Below, one piece after another: positions 1 to 34,059 of a stretch of 42,568 nt of DNA. Every line of letters starts with the position of its first letter. Position 1 is the stretch's first letter. The translations under genes were made by a program, and so were the position numbers. The notes below the pieces were generated by a model. The model was not told the DNA's origin. It did not search any database and saw only the letters and a program-made list of their open reading frames with translations. The DNA is from Candidatus Magasanikiibacteriota bacterium. Lineage in GTDB: Bacteria; Patescibacteriota; Patescibacteriia; Magasanikbacterales; GWA2-37-8. The stretch is taken from positions 1-42,568 of the forward strand of contig JAVHSM010000033.1 in the NCBI GenBank assembly GCA_036172155.1. Reading direction: 5' to 3'.

Positions 1-52
1 ACCCACGCCTACTCTTTTGGAGAGAGCAGTACTACCATTATACTACGCCCCT
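1..52 (-). tRNA. tRNA-Trp(CCA), 5' part only (T-arm and 3' end lie outside the window)
   Basis: The reverse complement reads AGGGGCGTAGTATAATGGTAGTACTGCTCTCTCCAAAAGAGTAGGCGTGGGT. It has an acceptor 5' strand, a D-arm, and an anticodon stem GCTCT/AGAGT with loop CTCCAAA. The start (AGGGGCGUAG) and anticodon loop match E. coli tRNA-Trp. Confidence 0.75.
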
Positions 53-9224: not shown

Positions 9225-11864
9225 TCAATTATTTCTATCGGCGAACAAAGACAATCTTTGCATTAGTAAATTGCTAATATCCAAGACTGTCTTGGCGACT
9301 TCTCTTTGTGAATCATCGGCTTCACCACTGGCGATTACACTGTTAGCCTTAGATTGTATTTTCATTATCGTGCCAAGTTTTTTTTCATAATCTTTTGAGT
9401 TTTCGACATTTTCCACCATACCAGCTTTTTGAACTGCTTCTACCGCCCCGCCAGAAGCATATAACAAACGATCGTTCGTACCTAATTCTTCTGTTGTGTC
9501 GTTCTTTTTGTCCAAATTCGGCAATGTACTTAACAAATTATCTATTTTATATTGAACATCACCAACATTGGCCTCCAGATTTTTTGATCGGTTATCGACT
9601 GTACTCCCAGAAACTACTCTATTTTTATTAGCGGCAATTTTTAAATCCTGTTCGTTCCAATTGTCGTCGGCTAAAATTCTGTCGTGCAAACCATACGCTA
9701 TCGCTATCCATTCCTTTTCTTTTGGAATTGTCGCAGATTCAGCAATTAAGTCTAACGCCCTCTTGGCTTCTGCCAAAAGCTTTTTCTTTTTAGTATTTGG
9801 CATATTGGGAGATTCTGCAACTTGCTCTAATATAGAAATTGCACCATTACCATCTGCAAACAAAGATCTTCTTACACTGTTCTCATCTCCATTATCAGTT
9901 CGAAGATAAGAATTTTTTCTAGGCAACTGACCCAAAAGGGATTCCATTGTATATTTGGAATAATCATTAGCTGCAACCTTTGGTTGGCCTTTTTCAGGAG
10001 CAGGCGAAACAACAGCCTCTGGAGTAGCAGTAAAAGTTTCCACTCCCAGATCAACAGGCCTGTGTCCTTTTTTATGACTTGGTTTTTCGTGTGTTTGTCC
10101 ACCGCCACCACCAACTACCCCAAAACCTTCCGGCATCATTTTATCAGGACGACCAAAACCAGCCGGAACACCGGATGGAGTAAAGGCGTTTGGTAAAGCA
10201 TTCACTGCTACTCTGGTAAACGGAGTCATTGAGGCAGGTTTTGGAGATTCCGCCTTTTTACCAGGCAAACTCATTCCACTCATACCGCCGGATCTTTCTG
10301 GAGCGGTAGCGCCAGTTTTATTTGGTTCTGGACGTACTTGAGACATATCTGTCGATTCAATACCAAGTTTGACCAATGAAAACAAAGCTAAAAAACCAGC
10401 TATTTTGGCCAGATTTTTGGTATTTTCAGCTGATTTCTTTTGTTTCATCTCTCTTACCAAAGCGGCAAATTCCAATTTGGCTTTTTCGTTATTCTCTAAG
10501 AGTTGTGGATTTTCATTATAAAAATAGACCAAAGTGTCTGTAAAATTTTTGATATCATTACCGAGCCTGTCCAATTCTTCATCAACTTGATTTTTTTTAC
10601 CAAGTTCATACCAGCTCAATCCTTTTCTTATCGACATTTGCGTATCAAAAGATGATTTTGTCATTGCCAAATCATTTCTAATTTGTTCTATCTGAGCTTT
10701 TACCCCTTCTAAACCTGACATTTTATCCGCATCCGACACACCGGCTCTATTTTCTGTTCCTTCGACCACTTGAGGTCTAAAAGCCGACGCCTTTACCAAA
10801 TCTTCCGCCGGAATTGCCGCCAGCATTTCATCCGCCTCGGCAGTATCTAGCCACTCACGCGCTACTTGTTGAGATATTTCGTTATTTGACCCATATACTT
10901 CTTGGGTCAACAACGGTAAAATATCCACAAGACCTTCTGTGTTAGATAAAATATTTTGAATTTCAGCGTTTTTATCAGCGATCTTTTCTTGAAATTTAGT
11001 TACGAAAAAAGAATATTTATCACCTTTCACAAATCTCATCAAAAAATTCGATCTTTTGTTTTCATCTACAAATTTTTTTAAATCTAATTCAATTTTCAAA
11101 CGCTCTCCTAGTAAACTTTCCAACCTGCCAACTTTATTTTCTCTTGTTTTTTCATTGAGATCAATTCCTATTTCACCAGTGTCAGTATGGCTTTCCAACC
11201 ATTCATCAACACGCCTATCGGAATTATCTTCTAAGACCGCATTGTTTGATTCCACCAAAGCTAAATTTGTAAACGGTTCTTCGTCTGAGACATCAACTAA
11301 AGATCCTGCTGGTAATAAATCTTCTTCGGCTTGCTCTCCTTCTCCACCCTCAAACGCTCTTAGACGCGCCCCCGCTTCACTTGTAGCTGGTGCCTGAAGA
11401 CCGGCTTCTGCAATTTTGCCTCGACTAATATGTTCTTTTCCAACTATTCCACGAAGTGTCTTTACTTGCTGTGCCTCGTATTGCGCGATAGCAATATTCA
11501 CCACATTAAACATATGGTCAGCGCCTTGTTGAACTTTTTTCTCAGAAGCAACACCTCTAGTTTCAGTCACAAAATCACTAACCGCCTCCTGAGTGCTCGG
11601 TAAAGCTAAAACATAATTTCTAGTAGATTCGTCTAAAACTCTCAGACTTTTAGCTAATGCCGCAATTTGCTTATATTGTGGAGAATCTTTTTTTAAATGC
11701 AAGACAGCATCACCGGAAAATTCTTGAAACATTCCAAACAGACCACCTTCGCTACGCTGGCGATCTGTTTTAGCTGCATCTCTGGCAGTTCCCAAGTCTC
11801 GTTGATTGTTATCTGAAACTGGGTGAAAATTGCCGACACCTCTTCTAAGGTTTGTTTTGGACAT
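9225..11864 (-). CDS. large orphan protein with one central TM segment and coiled-coil/low-complexity regions
   Basis: 879-aa intact ORF with an ATG start. There is a single hydrophobic helix (IAGFLALFSLVKLGI) near residue 490, followed by a P/G/S-rich linker (GFGVVGGGGGQTHEKPSHKKGH). I recognise no enzyme motif. Confidence 0.7.
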   Translation of the reverse strand: MSKTNLRRGVGNFHPVSDNNQRDLGTARDAAKTDRQRSEGGLFGMFQEFSGDAVLHLKKDSPQYKQIAALAKSLRVLDESTRNYVLALPSTQEAVSDFVTETRGVASEKKVQQGADHMFNVVNIAIAQYEAQQVKTLRGIVGKEHISRGKIAEAGLQAPATSEAGARLRAFEGGEGEQAEEDLLPAGSLVDVSDEEPFTNLALVESNNAVLEDNSDRRVDEWLESHTDTGEIGIDLNEKTRENKVGRLESLLGERLKIELDLKKFVDENKRSNFLMRFVKGDKYSFFVTKFQEKIADKNAEIQNILSNTEGLVDILPLLTQEVYGSNNEISQQVAREWLDTAEADEMLAAIPAEDLVKASAFRPQVVEGTENRAGVSDADKMSGLEGVKAQIEQIRNDLAMTKSSFDTQMSIRKGLSWYELGKKNQVDEELDRLGNDIKNFTDTLVYFYNENPQLLENNEKAKLEFAALVREMKQKKSAENTKNLAKIAGFLALFSLVKLGIESTDMSQVRPEPNKTGATAPERSGGMSGMSLPGKKAESPKPASMTPFTRVAVNALPNAFTPSGVPAGFGRPDKMMPEGFGVVGGGGGQTHEKPSHKKGHRPVDLGVETFTATPEAVVSPAPEKGQPKVAANDYSKYTMESLLGQLPRKNSYLRTDNGDENSVRRSLFADGNGAISILEQVAESPNMPNTKKKKLLAEAKRALDLIAESATIPKEKEWIAIAYGLHDRILADDNWNEQDLKIAANKNRVVSGSTVDNRSKNLEANVGDVQYKIDNLLSTLPNLDKKNDTTEELGTNDRLLYASGGAVEAVQKAGMVENVENSKDYEKKLGTIMKIQSKANSVIASGEADDSQREVAKTVLDISNLLMQRLSLFADRNN

Positions 11865-11943
11865 AAAATTTTATTTATAAATTGATTACTTTTTTTAGTG
11901 TATCATATTTTTAAAAAATCGTCAAAGTTTTGCACAGACGGTA

Positions 11944-11974
11944 TTGACAATTTTTATAAACATGCTAGTATAAA
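11944..11974 (+). promoter_or_regulatory. putative sigma70-type promoter for the GC-rich locus
   Basis: TTGACA at 11944-11949. It is followed by TAGTAT (16-nt spacer) or TATAAA (19-nt spacer), in an AT-rich divergent intergenic region. Confidence 0.4.
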
Positions 11975-12016
11975 ATGTTTTGGCAACAGCCGCGTAGTGC
12001 GGCAAAGGAGACACCG

Positions 12017-12343
12017 ATGGTGAGCATGGCTGGTTTGGCCTTCGTTCACCATGGGGTGACGAGCCATTACGAGGCGCAACAATACAGGAATGCTCGAAAT
12101 TTTTTCGAGCAACAAGGCGGCACGCAGTTCCTTGAGGACTGCGAACAAATAGCCGCCAACAACGAATTGGCTAGGCTATTTCTAGCCAATCTGTGGTACT
12201 TCTATGGACAGCTCTTCAATTCCGTTACTGCAATCAAAAAGGCAGATAAGGAGTGGTCACAGCTGGAAATGGAAGAAACCGCAGTCGGCCAGTGGGCGGC
12301 CATCATGCGTGCAGAAGCACGCGTTAGCGACCGTGTCGCCTAA
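12017..12343 (+). CDS. small GC-rich hypothetical protein (108 aa), or alternatively part of a structured RNA
   Basis: ATG at 12017 is preceded by AAGGAGA with a 5-nt spacer. The frame is open for 108 codons, and the predicted helical protein (…NELARLFLANLWYFYGQLFNSVTAIKK…) has no motif I recognise. My hand count of the first 60 nt gives 35 G+C, well above the flanks. The sequence contains several perfect hairpins, so coding status is uncertain. Confidence 0.45.
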   Translation: MVSMAGLAFVHHGVTSHYEAQQYRNARNFFEQQGGTQFLEDCEQIAANNELARLFLANLWYFYGQLFNSVTAIKKADKEWSQLEMEETAVGQWAAIMRAEARVSDRVA

Positions 12344-12474
12344 CAAGTAGCGTGGGTCGGATTCAATCCGATACCACACTCAATTCATCAGGAGGTGAAC
12401 AAGCGCCGGAGGTTCTTGGCGCTTCCCAGCACCTCCCTCCCAATAAATTCAAGAGAGAACTGAATTTATCAGGT
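12344..12474 (+). other. hairpin-dense 3' region of the GC-rich locus
   Basis: Contains TCGGA-TTCAA-TCCGA (12357-12371). There is a nested pair: GGAGGTG (12391-12397)/CACCTCC (12430-12436) enclosing AAGCGCC (12401-12407)/GGCGCTT (12418-12424). There is also ATAAATTCA (12443-12451)/TGAATTTAT (12461-12469). Confidence 0.5.
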
Positions 12475-12507
12475 AAAAAAATCCCCGACACAATCGAGGA
12501 TTTTTTT
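12475..12507. terminator. bidirectional intrinsic terminator
   Basis: AAAAAAATCC (12475-12484) pairs with GGATTTTTTT (12498-12507). A/T runs on both sides sit between the convergent 12017..12343 (+) and GT4 (-) genes. Confidence 0.7.
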
Positions 12508-13741
12508 ATTGTTTTATTGTTTCCCAAGTTAGACGCGCCGTTTCATCCCAAGAATATTTTTTTACCTGTTCCAATCCCAAACTAATTTTATTTTTTCGAT
12601 ATTCACCATCATTGATCAATTCAAATATTTTTAAACCAATATCATTGATGTCAAATGGATTAACATATTCGACTGCTCCTCCCCCCACCTCGTCCAACGC
12701 GCTACCTTTACTCGCAACCACTGGCACCCCCACGGCCATTGCCTCCAAAACCGGAATACCAAAACCTTCATACAAAGAAGGAAACACAAACACTTGTGCA
12801 TTTTTCAAAATATTCACCAGATCATCTGAACTCACAAACCCAGGTAAAATAATATCTTTTTTAAATATACTTTGCTCAATTGTCTGCTTCACCTTTTCAT
12901 AACCAGCCCCCGGTTTTCCTACCAAGATCAATTTCAAATCCGGCATTTGTTTTTTTACAATCTCAAAGGCCTGTACAATTCTTGCGGTATTCTTTTTTTC
13001 TTCCAAACGACCAATAGATAAAATATATTGACCATAAATACAAGAAATTCCTCGGCTCCTTTCAGTCGCTCGGAATGACAGTTGGCTGATGGGTTTTTCT
13101 AAATTAAATTTTTTGGTATCATAGGCTAACGGGATGACTTTTATTTTACTGACAAGGGATTGCTTCACCTTCGGCTCGCAATTACAGTCACCGACTGGAT
13201 TCCCGCTGGAGTTTATCCTCGCGGAGCGGGGGTGGGAACGACACTGACAATCAGCGTGAATTACATTATGACAGTAATATTTTAATAATTCTTTTTTATT
13301 AAATTCAGTGGAAGTCAAAATCAGTTTGGCTTTTTTGACGACCAAACGATTCATCCATTTCAAATACTGACAACCAAAAAATCTGTATACGGAAGGATAG
13401 GCTTCAAAAGCGCTATCATGCACCATCACCACCGAATTTTTTGGCGCAAAAAATGGCAATAGTTGCCCCGGTGAAAAATAAACATCCGGCGGATTGCGCC
13501 ACAATTCATACGCCAACCGAAATTGGCTCCACATTTTTTTAAAAGGCCAAACCAAAATTTTCACTTCCCAATTATTTGGCAATTGCGCCAATTCCGGTAT
13601 TAAAACATTATTGGAATACAAAACAACCCTCGTATCTGAAGGTATTTTTTTTTTTAATTCCTGAATAATCTGAAAACAATACTCCTCCACCCCGGTACGG
13701 TGAATTTTGTTGGCGTGCGTTGCATCAATACCGACTAACAT
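12506..13741 (-). CDS. GT4-family (GT-B fold) glycosyltransferase carrying in-frame repeat insertions
   Basis: 411 aa. The C-terminal domain has SIGRLEEKKN, FVFPSLYEGFGIPVLEAMAVGVPVV and typical EX7E-type spacing. The frame stays intact despite two repeat-derived segments. Confidence 0.85.
   Translation of the reverse strand: MLVGIDATHANKIHRTGVEEYCFQIIQELKKKIPSDTRVVLYSNNVLIPELAQLPNNWEVKILVWPFKKMWSQFRLAYELWRNPPDVYFSPGQLLPFFAPKNSVVMVHDSAFEAYPSVYRFFGCQYLKWMNRLVVKKAKLILTSTEFNKKELLKYYCHNVIHADCQCRSHPRSARINSSGNPVGDCNCEPKVKQSLVSKIKVIPLAYDTKKFNLEKPISQLSFRATERSRGISCIYGQYILSIGRLEEKKNTARIVQAFEIVKKQMPDLKLILVGKPGAGYEKVKQTIEQSIFKKDIILPGFVSSDDLVNILKNAQVFVFPSLYEGFGIPVLEAMAVGVPVVASKGSALDEVGGGAVEYVNPFDINDIGLKIFELINDGEYRKNKISLGLEQVKKYSWDETARLTWETIKQ
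13047..13079 (-). repeat. short palindromic repeat (GTCATTCCGAGCG...CGAGGAAT family) in frame inside the GT4 gene
   Basis: The reverse complement GTCATTCCGAGCGACTGAAAGGAGCCGAGGAAT is almost identical to the intergenic copy at 26307-26340. It is translated as LSFRATERSRGIS. Confidence 0.8.
13168..13250 (-). repeat. composite palindromic repeat insertion in frame inside the GT4 gene
   Basis: In gene sense it reads ...CTGTCGTTCCCACCCCCGCTCCGCGAGGATAAACTCCAGCGGGAATCCAG plus TCGGTGACTGTAATTGCGAGCCGAAGG. It is translated as HADCQCRSHPRSARINSSGNPVGDCNCEPKV, in the linker between the two Rossmann-like halves. Confidence 0.7.
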
Positions 13742-13837: not shown

Positions 13838-13978
13838 CAGAAGACAAACGATTAAACATATGTATTTTGAAACCGCCACGGAACTTTTGCCTCGCGGCAA
13901 AAGTGAGTGAGAGTGCGATTTTGTTACAACAAAATCGACACATGTTTCAAAATATATATGTTTAATCGTTTGTCTGAA
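13838..13978. repeat. MITE-like element with ~35-bp imperfect terminal inverted repeats enclosing two internal hairpins
   Basis: The left arm CAGAAGACAAACGATTAAACATATGTATTTTGAAAC (13838-13873) matches the reverse complement of the right arm GTTTCAAAATATATATGTTTAATCGTTTGTCTGAA (13944-13978). Internal hairpins are TTTTGCC-TCGC-GGCAAAA and CGATTTTGTT-ACA-ACAAAATCG. Confidence 0.65.
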
Positions 13979-18985: not shown

Positions 18986-21250
18986 ATGGAATTCAAGCTT
19001 CAATTACACGAATTTTTTATCGAAGGTGGCAATCGGGAGAAATCCCATGTTTTATTACACATTACCGAGCCTTCCACACCCGAAGAAAAACAAAAGGGGT
19101 ATTTTTTTGCTGTTTGTGAATTAAACAATGCCGGTACCAAAGATATTATCAATTTACAAAATACAGTTGATGAAATAGAATCTCGCTACTACGAAGCGCC
19201 TGAAAGCATCGGTGAAAATTCGTTGGAGACAGTTTTGAAAAAAATCAATCGTGAAAATTTGACATTAAATCAAGAAAATTTGATCAAACATTGTGTAGTC
19301 GGCATTGTGCGTGATCAACAGATTGTTTTTTCATTTTGTGGAAAACCAAAAATGCTCTTATTTTATAAGACAAAGGAAGACATATACAAAAAGATGGATC
19401 TGGTACCGACCGATAGTGATGAAGAAGAAAATCGTTTTTTCTCACAGATTGTCGAGGGTAAAATTTCACCAAACGATTTATTGTTTATTGCCACCCCACA
19501 ATTAAAAGAATACTTTGGAGACGATCGCCTACAAAAAATTATTACCTCTCGCCCCTCGCGCCAAAGCGCCCAACATATCGAGCGTGTGTTATCGGATATT
19601 CACAACGAGATATCCTTCGGCGGACTAATCATCCAGTTGAGCGAGTTACCAATGGCAGTTGGAGACGGTATCAAAAAACGACCGACATTAAAAGGTGGTT
19701 CTGTCAAATCATTGCACAACTTATTTGCCACGGAAAAAAATACCGCCAACACCATGTCACCATCAATTTTTCCAAAAATAAACCAACGAATAAGTGCCGC
19801 TTTTCAAAATGAATCATCCGAACAAAACCAGCTGGAAATACCGTTGTCGCCAACCATACCGGCTGAAATCAATTCCACTCATCTACGCCAATATCAAGGA
19901 AGAAAAGTTTCACCGCCTGAAACCGACCACTACATGCAACTCATCAAAACTGTCGGCCAAACAACTTGGTTGTGGCTACAACATATCGCCGGTTTTATTT
20001 GGTTGATCTTTATTATTATTTTCAAAACTATTATTGTTATTGGACATTTTCTTTCTTTACTATTCTTTGTCGTCAGCAACTACCAAAATCGTCGCCGTAA
20101 TATTTTAGATAATTGGACAAAACAGTGGTATGGTTTCAAAAGTTATATTCGACATCTACCAAAAACTACCAAAATATTTTTTAGTTTGAGCTTTCTAATA
20201 TTAATTATTTTTGTTTCTAGCGTCATTACTATTCGTGCCAATCAATTGCGCCAAGAACAAGAAAAGCGCGTTCAAGAAAACATTCGACAAATCATCGCCC
20301 ACAAAAATGCAGCAGAAAGCGCCGTTATCTATAGAGATGATGCCACCGCTCTAAACGAATCTCAAGCCGCCAAACAACTCATTATCCAACTGGATTGTAA
20401 AAAATACAAAAAGGAATGTGAAGATTTTAATCAAGAAATAAACGGCATTTTATCTCAAATAAGAAAAGAAGCCATAGTTAATCCGGATTTAGTATATGAT
20501 TGGAGCAAAGATCACACATCCTTATTCAATTTAGCCAAGATAAATAATCAGATTTTGGCCATTTCATCCAGTTCATCAAAAATAGCTGTGTTTGACCTAT
20601 TGACCAAGCAATCCAAAAACATTGACACAAAAATCAACAACCTCAAAGACATCACTGTCCCCAAAGAAAATGATTACGCGGCTATTTTATATGATGATAA
20701 TAATATAATTTTATATAACCCGAAAGATGAATCATTCAAACAAGGTAACATTTCTTTTCCAAAACCGACCGCCAAAATATCTAGCCTAATAATATACAAC
20801 CGTCGACTTTACAGTTTGGATATTACCAATAATCAAATTTACAAACACGAAAATATCAAAGACGGCTTTGGTCCGGGAAAAGAATGGATCAAAGATCTTT
20901 CGGTTGATGTAAAAAATGGCGTCTCGATGACCACCGACGGTGATATGTTTATCAGCAAAACCAATGGCACCATAGAAAAACTAACAGCTGGCAACAAACA
21001 GCCATTTGAAATCTCCGGCCTTGATCCTGCTCTAAAAAACGGTAGTGAAATTTGGACATACACAGACAAACAATTTGTCTATTTACTCGACGGAGCCGGC
21101 AAACGCCTAATTGTTCTACAAAAAGACGGCCACCTCAAAGAACAAATCACCACCACTGTCTGGAAAAATCCAACCGGCATGATTATCGATGAACAAAATA
21201 AAACTGCCTTTATTTTGGACAGCAACAAACTTTATCAGATAAACCTGTAG
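18986..21250 (+). CDS. large hypothetical membrane protein (degenerate PP2C/SpoIIE-like N-domain, TM pair, coiled coil, repeat-rich C-terminus)
   Basis: 754-aa intact ORF with an ATG start, divergent from the wHTH gene. Two long hydrophobic helices lie around residues 325-410. The C-terminal segments alternate strand-like repeats (…ILYDDNNIILYNP…, …IIYNRRLYSLD…, …FVYLLDGAGKRLIVLQ…, …AFILDSNKLYQINL), suggesting a beta-propeller. Confidence 0.65.
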   Translation: MEFKLQLHEFFIEGGNREKSHVLLHITEPSTPEEKQKGYFFAVCELNNAGTKDIINLQNTVDEIESRYYEAPESIGENSLETVLKKINRENLTLNQENLIKHCVVGIVRDQQIVFSFCGKPKMLLFYKTKEDIYKKMDLVPTDSDEEENRFFSQIVEGKISPNDLLFIATPQLKEYFGDDRLQKIITSRPSRQSAQHIERVLSDIHNEISFGGLIIQLSELPMAVGDGIKKRPTLKGGSVKSLHNLFATEKNTANTMSPSIFPKINQRISAAFQNESSEQNQLEIPLSPTIPAEINSTHLRQYQGRKVSPPETDHYMQLIKTVGQTTWLWLQHIAGFIWLIFIIIFKTIIVIGHFLSLLFFVVSNYQNRRRNILDNWTKQWYGFKSYIRHLPKTTKIFFSLSFLILIIFVSSVITIRANQLRQEQEKRVQENIRQIIAHKNAAESAVIYRDDATALNESQAAKQLIIQLDCKKYKKECEDFNQEINGILSQIRKEAIVNPDLVYDWSKDHTSLFNLAKINNQILAISSSSSKIAVFDLLTKQSKNIDTKINNLKDITVPKENDYAAILYDDNNIILYNPKDESFKQGNISFPKPTAKISSLIIYNRRLYSLDITNNQIYKHENIKDGFGPGKEWIKDLSVDVKNGVSMTTDGDMFISKTNGTIEKLTAGNKQPFEISGLDPALKNGSEIWTYTDKQFVYLLDGAGKRLIVLQKDGHLKEQITTTVWKNPTGMIIDEQNKTAFILDSNKLYQINL

Positions 21251-21253
21251 ATT

Positions 21254-21367
21254 AAAAACAAAGCGGGGTGGTAATTACTTTTGAGCGGGTTATGAGGCCG
21301 AGGCCCCATCCTTTCGCCTTCGCAGGCGAAAAAAGCGAAAAAGTCATTACCACCCCTCTTTGTTTTT
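21254..21367. repeat. multi-hairpin repeat element, copy 1, at a convergent gene junction (probable bidirectional terminator)
   Basis: The outer stem is AAAAACAAAGCGGGGTGGTAAT/ATTACCACCCCTCTTTGTTTTT. The conserved core (21283-21344) is AATTACTTTTGAGCGGGTTATGAGGCCGAGGCCCCATCCTTTCGCCTTCGCAGGCGAAAAAAGCGAAAAAGT. Copy 2 is at 26786-26894. Confidence 0.8.
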
Positions 21368-21445
21368 AAGAAAATTACTAGATAAACATCTATAAGAAAT
21401 AAAAAATCTCCCGTTTAAAAGCGAGAGATTTTTTAATTGAAATTA

Positions 21446-32357: not shown

Positions 32358-33593
32358 TTAGAGACGACGAGTGTTACTGGCGAAGGCAATCACAGATTGC
32401 GATACCTCCACCGAAGTTTTATTATGCACACGCTCGACGAAAGCGTGCACATCTGGCCACTTCATTTCTTCCCAAAATGAAACCGGCGGCTGGGGCGCAA
32501 ACCCCAACGCTGGAAAATGGTTTTTACACCATTCCAACGCTTCTAGCGGGATATTTGTCCCCGCCAGATGCCCTTGCCATCCGTAAACTGCCCGAGTGAT
32601 TGTCTCGCCCGTACAGCCCCACAGAACATGATGACCACCAGCACCAACATCAGCGAGAAATTTACCACCGAATTGGCCAAATGATTCCGGCAAAACTTGA
32701 TCAGTGAACTGACCACAACCGGAAATCAGAACCAGACGGTTCTTATTCCAATCGGGGTGTTCATGACAGGCCGCCGGAGTGGTCATATCAAGCACAAGTG
32801 TCCCGACAGGAATCTCACTAGGAGCGAGATCCATACCGGTAGTGGCTACAATCACAAGATCACTCTTATGCTGGTGACACGCCACACTCTTATCTTGATG
32901 AATTTCCACAAGACTACCCCTCACACGATCGCGCAGATCGTTTAGGCGGGTTGCGTTGGCTTCGTTTCCCTTTCCTACGAGTTGGATACTCGATGGATTG
33001 AGACTAGGAAGAGCGCGGGCAATCGCATCACCAATGGCACCGTTGGCGCCAATGACAGAAACTCGAAAACCATTTTCAAAACCGGCACGACGAATGGTTT
33101 CAAGTACCAAAGCCGCCGTACCAGAGTCTCCATGAGTGGTTGAGATTGTTGAATCTGTTTTCACCCACGGATTATTGTTTAAGAATTTCTGTCCATGATT
33201 GGTGGCCACCTTTGTTAAAGCACCCCAACCAACGGTGATATGAACCCTGTCTCTTTTTGCTTCAGCAATGGCGGCGAGTGCCACTACTTCGGCCCAAGTA
33301 TACGCCCGTTCACTCTTACAGGCGGCCAAGAATTCTCCGGCCAAGATTGGAATAATATAGAAATCAACCCAAACTGGCTGTCCTTGACCGTCCGTCGGAA
33401 TGACGGGGAAACTAAACCAATTGATAGCTTCAGGATCTTCGCCTTCCTGAGGCCATTTCTTACCAAGAGCATCTAGGCGCCGACCAATGAGGTCGGTGGA
33501 AAGATACCCGTCGATAAGTGCGTGTGCAATAAAGGCCACACGCGGCCAACTTTTTTCCGGCCAATTTGACCGGTTCGGGCGCGCAATGCGCAT
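32358..33593 (-). CDS. GC-rich NAD(P)-binding oxidoreductase of the COG5322 type (the family that includes cyanobacterial acyl-ACP reductase)
   Basis: 411 aa with an ATG preceded by AAGAGGAGG. Its motif order parallels Synechococcus Aar as I recall it: FIAHAL (LIGHL), FYIIPILAGEFL (YIESCFLPEML), GWGALTKV (ALGGFTSI), TTHGDSGTAAL (TTGNTHTAY), VSVIGANGAIGDAIARAL (VAVVGATGDIGSAVCRWL) and DLVIVATTG (DFIVWVAS). A 60-nt sample at the 3' end has 30 G+C. Confidence 0.5.
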   Translation of the reverse strand: MRIARPNRSNWPEKSWPRVAFIAHALIDGYLSTDLIGRRLDALGKKWPQEGEDPEAINWFSFPVIPTDGQGQPVWVDFYIIPILAGEFLAACKSERAYTWAEVVALAAIAEAKRDRVHITVGWGALTKVATNHGQKFLNNNPWVKTDSTISTTHGDSGTAALVLETIRRAGFENGFRVSVIGANGAIGDAIARALPSLNPSSIQLVGKGNEANATRLNDLRDRVRGSLVEIHQDKSVACHQHKSDLVIVATTGMDLAPSEIPVGTLVLDMTTPAACHEHPDWNKNRLVLISGCGQFTDQVLPESFGQFGGKFLADVGAGGHHVLWGCTGETITRAVYGWQGHLAGTNIPLEALEWCKNHFPALGFAPQPPVSFWEEMKWPDVHAFVERVHNKTSVEVSQSVIAFASNTRRL

Positions 33594-33693: not shown

Positions 33694-34059
33694 TTAATCA
33701 CGAAATCTTCCCAAATTAATATCCAACGCTTTAAAAACTAAATTTAAAGTTTTAATTTTTAATTCTCCTTTTTTTGCTACCAACAATTCACGCGGTACAG
33801 TAAAAATTTTGTGAAGCATACAAATACCATCTACACCAACACCCAATTCATCCTTATTTATTAAAACTTCATTGGCAAAAACTTCATCATCTTTTTTATA
33901 AGGTTTAATTAGAACGCATACTACTGTAGGCAAACCATCATTGAGAATATTATCTTGCAAAATTAAAACAGTTTCTTTTGAGCCACTCTCTCTTTCATAC
34001 AAAAAAACATCACCACGACGAACAGCACCACAATACATTTTATCAAAATTAAATTCCAT
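33694..34059 (-). CDS. mazF: type II toxin, MazF/PemK family
   Basis: 121 aa. RRGDVFLY, ETVLILQDNILNDGLPTVVCVLIKPY and GICMLHKIFTVPRELL follow the MazF/PemK pattern. It starts 1 nt after the upstream small ORF. Confidence 0.7.
   Translation of the reverse strand: MEFNFDKMYCGAVRRGDVFLYERESGSKETVLILQDNILNDGLPTVVCVLIKPYKKDDEVFANEVLINKDELGVGVDGICMLHKIFTVPRELLVAKKGELKIKTLNLVFKALDINLGRFRD

Follow-up and report, generated by a model that had tools for sequence, protein, structure and literature searches.

A small protein gene of Candidatus Magasanikbacteria whose entire messenger RNA carries a conserved fold

Is the short, G+C-rich and hairpin-laden locus at positions 11944-12507 of the contig JAVHSM010000033.1 (a stretch of 42,568 nucleotides (nt) from the Candidatus Magasanikiibacteriota assembly GCA_036172155.1, analysed here over its whole length and called the window hereafter) a small protein-coding gene, perhaps a foreign one, or is it a large structured RNA not described before? 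A preliminary description of the locus had put these two forward as an either/or, which turned out to be the wrong way of asking, as the same RNA is both coding and structured and the two readings are, therefore, not alternatives. Comparisons of 16 distinct loci (assembled from the contigs of homologues and from DNA-pattern scans of genomes and metagenomes using the 3' domain of the locus) show that the protein and the RNA fold are both under selection within the same sequence, and that the whole messenger RNA (mRNA), from its 5' end to the terminator, carries a conserved and dense secondary structure.

The open reading frame (ORF) at 12017-12343 is, judging by how its homologues have diverged, a real conserved coding gene under purifying selection, so that the small ORF suspected at the outset has held up. 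The frame is open across 108-159 codons in the 16 diverged sequences (protein identity between clades is about 30% at the amino acid (aa) level), and a Shine-Dalgarno (SD) sequence followed by an ATG is present at the aligned start in 16/16 loci, the window copy having, just as had been reported, AAGGAGA at 12005-12011, 5 nt upstream of the ATG at 12017. Twelve pairs were tested for the ratio of nonsynonymous to synonymous substitution rates (dN/dS): it lies at 0.19-0.35 in 11 of them (dS being saturated in the twelfth), the third codon position is the most changed one in all 12, and the insertions/deletions that separate the window from the homologous locus L001 come in multiples of three within the ORF and as single bases past the stop codon. 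It had been proposed beforehand that a plain protein gene would be recognised by synonymous-biased substitution unaccompanied by compensatory changes in the stems; the bias is indeed seen, but the stems show compensatory changes as well.

The evidence for the RNA side begins with the folding energy. The predicted transcript (11978-12507, about 530 nt, with the transcription start predicted at ~11978) has a minimum free energy (MFE) of -214.4 kcal/mol versus -157.6 +/- 6.4 kcal/mol for dinucleotide shuffles (z = -8.85, 0/100 as good), which substantiates the early impression that hairpins are more frequent here than chance would give, and the parts behave alike (z = -6.7 for the ORF alone and -5.1 for the 3' untranslated region (UTR) minus the terminator), as do the L001 transcript (z = -8.9) and ORF (-7.7 to -7.8), the ORF values spanning -2.3 to -7.7 across 10 loci. 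When the protein and codon usage are retained and only synonymous codons are permuted, the ORF still has a z of -2.05 to -6.6 in all 16 loci (-5.6 for the window), compared with a mean of -0.23 (standard deviation (sd) 1.23, minimum -3.1) for 20 control segments from five neighbouring genes, and, among the 37 ORFs of the window scored by such shuffles, it is the most extreme (z = -6.97 versus a median of -0.74, sd 1.56). The 13 long homologues, aligned with regard to their codons, give an RNAalifold consensus that comprises 137 pairs, 85% of them canonical and 55 with compensatory change, whereas partner-shifted controls are only 34-42% paired; the native alignment reaches -185 versus -87 +/- 5.6 in 40 column-shuffled alignments (z = -17.6), in which compensatory pairs average 23 and never exceed 35. 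All of these structure nulls are sequence, synonymous-codon or column shuffles and are not tree-aware. As the fold seems to be maintained by G+C-rich synonymous codons together with compensatory substitutions, a dual constraint, on protein and on RNA, is indicated.

The base composition fits into this picture in a way other than that first proposed. The jump in G+C reported for the locus is real (0.50-0.52 over 12000-12450 versus 0.30-0.40 in the immediate flanks), but comparable local peaks inside the neighbouring gene for an 879-aa protein and inside mreB mean that the rise by itself is not unique. The G+C content of third codon positions (GC3), in turn, is 0.59 for the focal ORF; its homologues all lie at 0.47-0.69, as opposed to 0.25-0.45 for eight other genes in the window. 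Such a placement of the excess at synonymous sites argues for selection on RNA stability and not for a foreign origin. The suggestion of foreign DNA was consequently rejected, the 16 loci being syntenic and GC3 being high in all of them.

As far as sequence features can tell, the locus is shown to form one transcription unit, ~530 nt long, that has a promoter and an intrinsic terminator of its own, both located where they had been claimed to be; the terminator is bidirectional, and the spacing between the -35 ATTGAC and the TGnTAnnAT-type -10 is kept in nearly all of the 16 homologues in the upstream alignment. The features, in window coordinates, are the following:

11917..11937, no strand assigned: intergenic conserved motif AATCGTCAAAGTTTTGCACAG, conserved across the 16 aligned upstream regions
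11944..11971, plus strand: sigma-70-type promoter with TTGACA, 16-nt spacer and extended -10 TG-c-TAGTAT (promoter scan)
11978..12016, plus strand: 5' UTR with the conserved 5' end (A/C)UGUUUUG, a hairpin and the SD (sequence read)
11989-12003, plus strand: 5' hairpin GCCGC-GUAGU-GCGGC (inverted repeat, kept in relatives)
12014..12059, plus strand: two mutually exclusive hairpins sharing the strand UCACC(AU) at 12046-12052
12017..12343, plus strand: coding sequence (CDS) of a 108-aa protein modelled as a helical repeat, TPR-like (homologues, dN/dS, AlphaFold2 model)
12091..12111, plus strand: 9-bp hairpin in the CDS, formed by the codons for A-R-N-F-F-E-Q (inverted-repeat scan)
12123..12345, plus strand: further CDS hairpins (MFE, centroid, inverted repeats, and pairs common to L001, including compensatory ones)
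12352..12377, plus strand: 3' UTR hairpin GUGG-g-UCGGA-uucaa-UCCGA-ua-CCAC (predicted fold)
12384..12506, plus strand: conserved 3' RNA domain (covariance model; single strong match in the window, 116.8 bits)
12391-12397/12430-12436, plus strand: hairpin A, GGAGGUG/CACCUCC, enclosing the inner hairpin
12401-12424, plus strand: inner hairpin AAGCGCC/GGCGCUU (arms 12401-12407/12418-12424), inside hairpin A
12437-12441, plus strand: anti-SD-like strand CUCCC
12443-12469, plus strand: hairpin B (arms 12443-12451/12461-12469), whose loop and closing pair carry CAAGAGAGAA at 12450-12459
12474-12508: terminator composed of A-run, hairpin and T-run (inverted-repeat scan)

Every hairpin of the preliminary description was recovered by the sequence read and the inverted-repeat scan, the one given as 12092-12110 being a 9-bp hairpin at 12091-12111. 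The 5' hairpin recurs with other letters, as GCUGC/GCAGC in L001 and as GACUGU/ACAGUC in the locus L007, with compensatory change in 4/4 pairs. Around the start codon, AUGGUGA at 12017-12023 pairs with 12046-12052 (a helix that extends to 12014-12023/12046-12055), while the alternative hairpin UCACC-AUGG-GGUGA (12046-12059) is the family-conserved one, with compensatory change in 6/10 of its pairs; in L001 all three strands are changed in concert (AUGGUGG/CCACCAU/GGGGUGG), which is what a two-state switch would require, and, within the clade of the window, the AUG is paired with a probability of 0.95-0.97 in the predicted ensemble. Further into the CDS, the long homologues have a hairpin at the same aligned residues as 12091-12111 that is made of other codons (CCAGGA/UCCUGG, with Arg encoded by AGG and not CGA), and the helix at alignment columns 131-136/140-145 shows 91% pairing and includes 3 compensatory pairs. 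The remaining CDS hairpins lie at 12123-12143, 12159-12197 (9-bp core at 12166-12190), 12307-12322 and 12323-12345 (including 12327-12339), and a long irregular helix spans about 12191-12288. Past the stop codon, the L001 counterpart of the hairpin at 12352-12377 is almost entirely different in sequence and yet retains a hairpin, a two-part one (GCCAC-au-UGAAC-uaa-GUUCG-ag-GUGGC) with 6 pairs changed on both sides.

No other segment of the locus is as well conserved as the 3' domain, whose mean pairwise nucleotide identity is 0.78-0.81 compared with 0.53, 0.60 and 0.41 at codon positions 1, 2 and 3, respectively. Its pairing stands at 94.4% versus 36-58% with slid partners, and its covariation score of 0.153 versus 0.087 was reached by 0/500 shuffles. 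All 16 loci have a C(A/C)(C/U)CUCC strand and, after it, another C-rich strand with CUCC; CAAGAGAGAA is invariant in all of them, whereas hairpin B covaries in its stem. Hairpin A can be written as GGAGGUG(C)/(G)CACCUCC and the second C-rich strand as C(C)UCCC. Among the long homologues, the codons AGG-AGG-UGC (Arg-Arg-Cys) form the 5' strand of hairpin A, with the stop codon located within the hairpin, and where the loci L013 and L015 have a synonymous AGG-to-AGA change, the 3' strand has a C replaced by U to match; the domain's covariation can be exemplified by GGAGGUGC/GCACCUCC turning into GGAGAUGC/GCAUCUCC via a synonymous Arg codon change. The covariance model finds one strong copy per locus and no extra copies in the window, and two collection scans never found the domain away from the focal ORF. 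The three homologues with a shortened ORF (the window, L001 and L006; 108-116 codons versus the usual 152-159) keep the domain intact as a 3' UTR, so the constraint there must be on the RNA. Measured against the family norm of ~155 aa, the window copy is, as the alignment indicates, a derived form shortened at its C-terminus, while its RNA is still ~530 nt, versus 603-621 nt in the long homologues, with the 3' domain complete.

What does the gene encode, and who has it? A protein search returned the identical 108-aa protein (P0001) on four short contigs plus a relative with 56% identity (identical contigs came from the samples SRR25490531, SRR25490533, SRR25490536 and SRR25490538), an exhaustive profile search found only seven family members among 1.84 billion cluster representatives, and a word-index profile search found eleven, the family totalling 15 protein clusters (P0001 and the homologues P0002-P0015). 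The labelled homologous loci belong to genomes assigned to Candidatus Magasanikbacteria, within the Candidate Phyla Radiation (CPR/Patescibacteria); the DNA-pattern scans gave 61 genome matches, mostly due to chance, with the gene carried only by loci labelled Magasanikbacteria and by one contig binned as an "uncultured Gammaproteobacteria bacterium" (L050, CAZXEV010000007.1), which is probably a mis-binned Magasanikbacteria contig. Database records thus show a family known only from a sub-lineage of the genomes assigned to this taxon. Gene order, where the flanks suffice, is shared: holB (delta' subunit), then the large orphan gene, read leftwards, the small gene rightwards, then GT4, mreB and DUF4012, all leftwards.

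The protein itself is predicted to be a small, all-helical, TPR-like repeat: AlphaFold2, given an alignment of 12 sequences, models the usual 154-aa form as an eight-helix repeat (predicted local distance difference test (pLDDT) 93.3, predicted template modelling score (pTM) 0.86) and the 108-aa form of the window as a six-helix repeat (pLDDT 93.8). The stacked antiparallel helix pairs of the models resemble those of TPR/Sel1-like proteins, from which the family differs in having no match to any Pfam model of the TPR type and in being confined to the 15 clusters. No Pfam or NCBIfam family scores above threshold with the focal protein, a PDB sequence-profile search gave no relative (E of 0.07 or higher), and Foldseek searches of PDB and viral structures gave weak generic matches (E >= 0.026, TM-scores of 0.2-0.5, or up to 0.54 if normalised by target length), the best being designed helical repeats, kinesin light-chain TPR domains and BcsC repeats. 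With an isoelectric point anywhere between 5.3 and 9.8 among the family, the protein is not consistently basic/RNA-binding-like. As for the RNA, no Rfam family was found at the locus at the gathering threshold (RNase P, signal recognition particle (SRP), 6S, OLE, ROOL, GOLLD and riboswitches included), in keeping with the prior statement that it is not RNase P RNA, transfer-messenger RNA (tmRNA), SRP RNA or a group II intron; other Rfam families were dismissed, as permissive searches gave terminator-driven chance matches only. A full-text literature search returned no relevant described structured RNA of Magasanikbacteria or Patescibacteria. The protein family and the RNA are both undescribed and are absent from Pfam, NCBIfam and Rfam, the RNA being, with its covarying structure, the undescribed structured RNA that had been surmised.

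What could such a fold be for? The reading favoured here, to which a probability of roughly one half is given, is that the fold acts in cis, controlling the translation and stability of its own mRNA. The hairpin directly 5' of the SD and the compact body would protect the RNA, and, in the clade of the window, the start codon would be locked in a hairpin competing with the family-conserved UCACC/GGUGA one, i.e., a two-state switch. The 3' domain would provide anti-SD-like C-rich strands (CACCUCC and CUCCC) that might pair with the SD-like GGAGGUG where the ORF ends and, over a long range, with the true SD, and the resulting sequestration of the SD/start could keep translation low or conditional. 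In the MFE structures of the window and L001, the SD GGAG is paired with a 3' CUCC, and the consensus has a five-pair SD:CCUCC helix, 94% paired and stacked beside hairpin A. Precedents exist: the UCCCCUG motif in the icaR 3' UTR pairs with the SD of the same mRNA (PMC3868564), and anti-SD-like sequences hundreds of nt downstream, which are normally depleted from genes, repress the ribosome-binding site (PMC12697547). The focal mRNA resembles icaR of Staphylococcus aureus and the long-range anti-SD case of Bacillus subtilis in having a C-rich anti-SD-like motif towards the 3' end, in the same molecule, that is able to pair with its own SD, and in conserving that motif though such motifs are normally selected against; it differs in that its SD pairing is only predicted, and unevenly so, in that it has two C-rich and two extra SD-like strands in a nested domain, in its wholly folded CDS, in its CPR host, and in having no sequence relationship to either.

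Several observations weigh against a role in cis. The predicted probability of pairing between the SD and the 3' C-rich strands is uneven, ranging from 0 to 0.82 and being <=0.03 in 6/16 homologues; the SD:CCUCC helix has 0 compensatory pairs in the consensus, although covariation is uninformative for an SD/anti-SD pair, as both sequences are constrained anyway; and, for the isolated 3' domain, RNAalifold favours pairing of the inner GGAGG with the second CCUCC, which leaves the exact conformation unsettled. The consensus energies of the sense and antisense strands are nearly equal (-185.0 versus -183.7), the antisense being better in 7/16 single sequences. Finally, cis regulation does not obviously explain why the CDS is fully folded or why CAAGAGAGAA is invariant. 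Owing to these weak points, an RNA that acts in trans or binds a partner stays a serious rival.

Such a rival, possible but less probable, would have the folded RNA, or a processed 3' fragment of ~120 nt (12384-12507), act in trans besides encoding the protein, either as a riboregulator that pairs with other mRNAs through an exposed anti-SD-like CCUCCC and the invariant CAAGAGAGAA or as a scaffold/decoy that binds a protein or the ribosome, in the manner of S. aureus RNAIII or of small RNAs (sRNAs) derived from 3' UTRs. It draws on the 3' domain being better conserved (0.78-0.81) than the protein and persisting where the ORF got shorter, on CAAGAGAGAA staying the same in 16 loci while the stem of hairpin B around it covaries, on an sRNA-typical layout that combines structured hairpins with a terminator and a conserved motif left single-stranded, and on a whole-RNA z near -9, which fits a functional RNA better than an mRNA. 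The promoter scan, however, showed no internal promoter 5' of the 3' domain in the window, the 42-kb window shows no excess of complements of the AAGAGAGAA loop (13 versus 10.3 expected), and the fact that the 3' domain is never met apart from the ORF fits a role in cis equally well. Taken further, and with the same probability, the transcript could be a previously undescribed bifunctional CPR RNA of ~530-620 nt whose conserved fold, the 3' domain above all, has an RNA-level job of its own (riboregulation in trans, or binding of a partner such as the ribosome), and in which the RNA matters no less than the protein does, as the clade with a shortened ORF but a kept RNA suggests.

The other explanations fare worse. 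That this is an ordinary protein gene, with a fold that simply follows from composition or codon bias and does nothing of its own, is unlikely: the coding signature is clear and unusually good folding is seen at a few further sites in the window, yet the shuffles that preserve protein and codons leave the z below -2 in every locus, with neighbours, G+C-rich mreB included, averaging -0.2, helices are retained at the same aligned positions by compensatory and codon-family changes, and the best conserved part of the locus is the non-coding 3' domain. The near-equal sense/antisense energies and the bidirectional terminator might mean that the structure is that of an antisense RNA, from the opposite strand, or of single-stranded DNA, which is nevertheless very improbable, given that the sense structure has about twice as many G-U pairs as C-A cells (139 versus 73), that the SD, the ORF and the conserved promoter, itself close to consensus, all face the plus strand, and that no minus-strand promoter-like site leads into the locus from its 3' side in the window, read-through from GT4 excepted. 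Hardly any credence can be given to a large non-coding RNA with an untranslated ORF: its fold z-scores and covariation do match the level of known structured RNAs, and the start codon and, partly, the SD are predicted to be paired in the clade of the window, but the low dN/dS with its third-position bias, the ORF indels in threes, the SD and ATG of all 16 loci, the long open frames in such diverged sequences and the confident AlphaFold2 models obtained despite a shallow alignment all speak for translation.

A divergent tmRNA, that other kind of structured and coding RNA, has next to no chance of being the answer, and this identity was rejected as a chance resemblance. A local match to RF00023 at 12123-12190 (12.1 bits, E = 0.006-0.011) covers pseudoknot 1, the resume-codon region and helix 5, and one can point to a resume-codon-like stretch, AAAUAGCC-GCC-AAC-AAC-GAA, and to GGGGUGACG at 12053; the score is, however, far under the gathering score of 47 and touches only model positions 56-140 of 374, ARAGORN finds no tmRNA (just three tRNAs elsewhere in the window), the sequence read gives neither an acceptor/T-arm pairing nor a CCA end (a GGGGUGA lacks its acceptor partner), the matched stretch is not conserved in L001, the closest relative, the distant relative L007 has no tmRNA hit, and the "tag" frame would span 63 codons. 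The focal RNA thus fails every defining test of a tmRNA.

The long-range SD pairing put forward for the cis reading aside, close parallels are found among the dual-function RNAs. S. aureus RNAIII is about 514 nt long, has many hairpins, encodes delta-haemolysin and uses C-rich loops to pair with the SDs of its targets. Together with SgrS/SgrT and SR1/SR1P, it shares with the focal RNA a highly structured, protein-encoding make-up of ~0.5 kb and a conserved 3' domain with C-rich motifs beside the terminator; the focal RNA is unlike them in that its ORF fills most of the molecule (108-159 codons versus 26-43), in having its structure within the coding sequence, and in showing no homology to any of them.

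Immediately upstream, the locus faces the gene of the 879-aa protein (9225-11864, minus strand; no Pfam match; counterparts in relatives of ~720 to 1,000 aa), whose divergent promoter, TTGACG-17-TACACT, was placed by the promoter scan at 11925-11897 on the minus strand, with its -35 (TTGACG) inside AATCGTCAAAGTTTTGCACAG. The conservation of the promoter regions of both genes, even though the 879-aa counterparts vary in length, suggests that the two may be regulated jointly.

On the other side lies the GT4 glycosyltransferase gene (12506-13741, minus strand), which encodes 411 aa versus 364-370 aa in four relatives; its extra segment appears to be Cys/His-rich (…HADCQCRSHPRSARINSSGNPVGDCNCEPK…), and a structured element may have been inserted in frame here (z = -3.7 for the tile at 13081 and -3.1 for the control segment GT4_1, the tile z-scores here and below coming from a minus-strand half-tiling of the window). 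The 252-nt spacer between GT4 and mreB, a gap of only ~2-13 nt in relatives, houses an inverted repeat at 13842-13975 (32-nt arms, 97% complementary, 70 nt apart; minus-strand tile z = -7.6) that looks like a small insertion resembling a miniature inverted-repeat transposable element (MITE).

Other structured places are found farther away. An ORF at 32358-33593 (minus strand; listed with 33694-34059, also minus) encodes 411 aa without a Pfam match, lies directly downstream of a PemK/MazF-like toxin gene, has a G+C of ~0.50, and has an exceptionally folded mRNA (synonymous-shuffle z of -3.2 to -5.6 in 4/4 segments of 309 nt; minus-strand tiles at -7.4 and -4.2); it shares with the focal gene only the 5' layout of a hairpin and then an SD, and has no comparable 3' domain. 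Folded mRNAs might conceivably recur in this genome, for example to protect transcripts against an endoribonuclease toxin. A group I intron match (RF00028, 53.3 bits) adjoins a 202-aa ORF (1135-1339 and 1357-1965, both on the minus strand) whose mRNA is rather structured (z = -3.15), and a tRNA at 1-52 (minus strand) is truncated by the window end. The tile at 20929-21255 (minus strand, z = -6.3) is antisense to the 3' end of the ORF at 18986-21250 (plus strand), and a weak, terminator-like match to the 3'-domain model (21315-21433, 17.8 bits) is located just downstream of it.

Structured and dual-function mRNAs, as well as SD:anti-SD pairing between the two ends of a transcript, are already known, and RNA viruses, along with a few short sRNAs of dual function, offer familiar cases of overlapping constraints on protein and RNA; the combination seen at this locus is not known. 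In it, a whole chromosomal CDS carries a conserved fold, an ultra-conserved 3' domain is made up of mimics of SD/anti-SD sequences, and there is a clade in which the protein was trimmed and the RNA was kept. Conserved structure across an entire bacterial chromosomal coding sequence is, to our knowledge, rare, and we know of almost nothing on the RNA biology of this CPR lineage. The locus offers a compact model, with conserved anti-SD elements 3' of the gene, a proposed start-codon switch backed by a three-way substitution, and a protein that has shrunk while its RNA has not, and it also calls for some caution in annotation: a conserved open ORF does not exclude a functional RNA, nor does a functional RNA exclude a real ORF.

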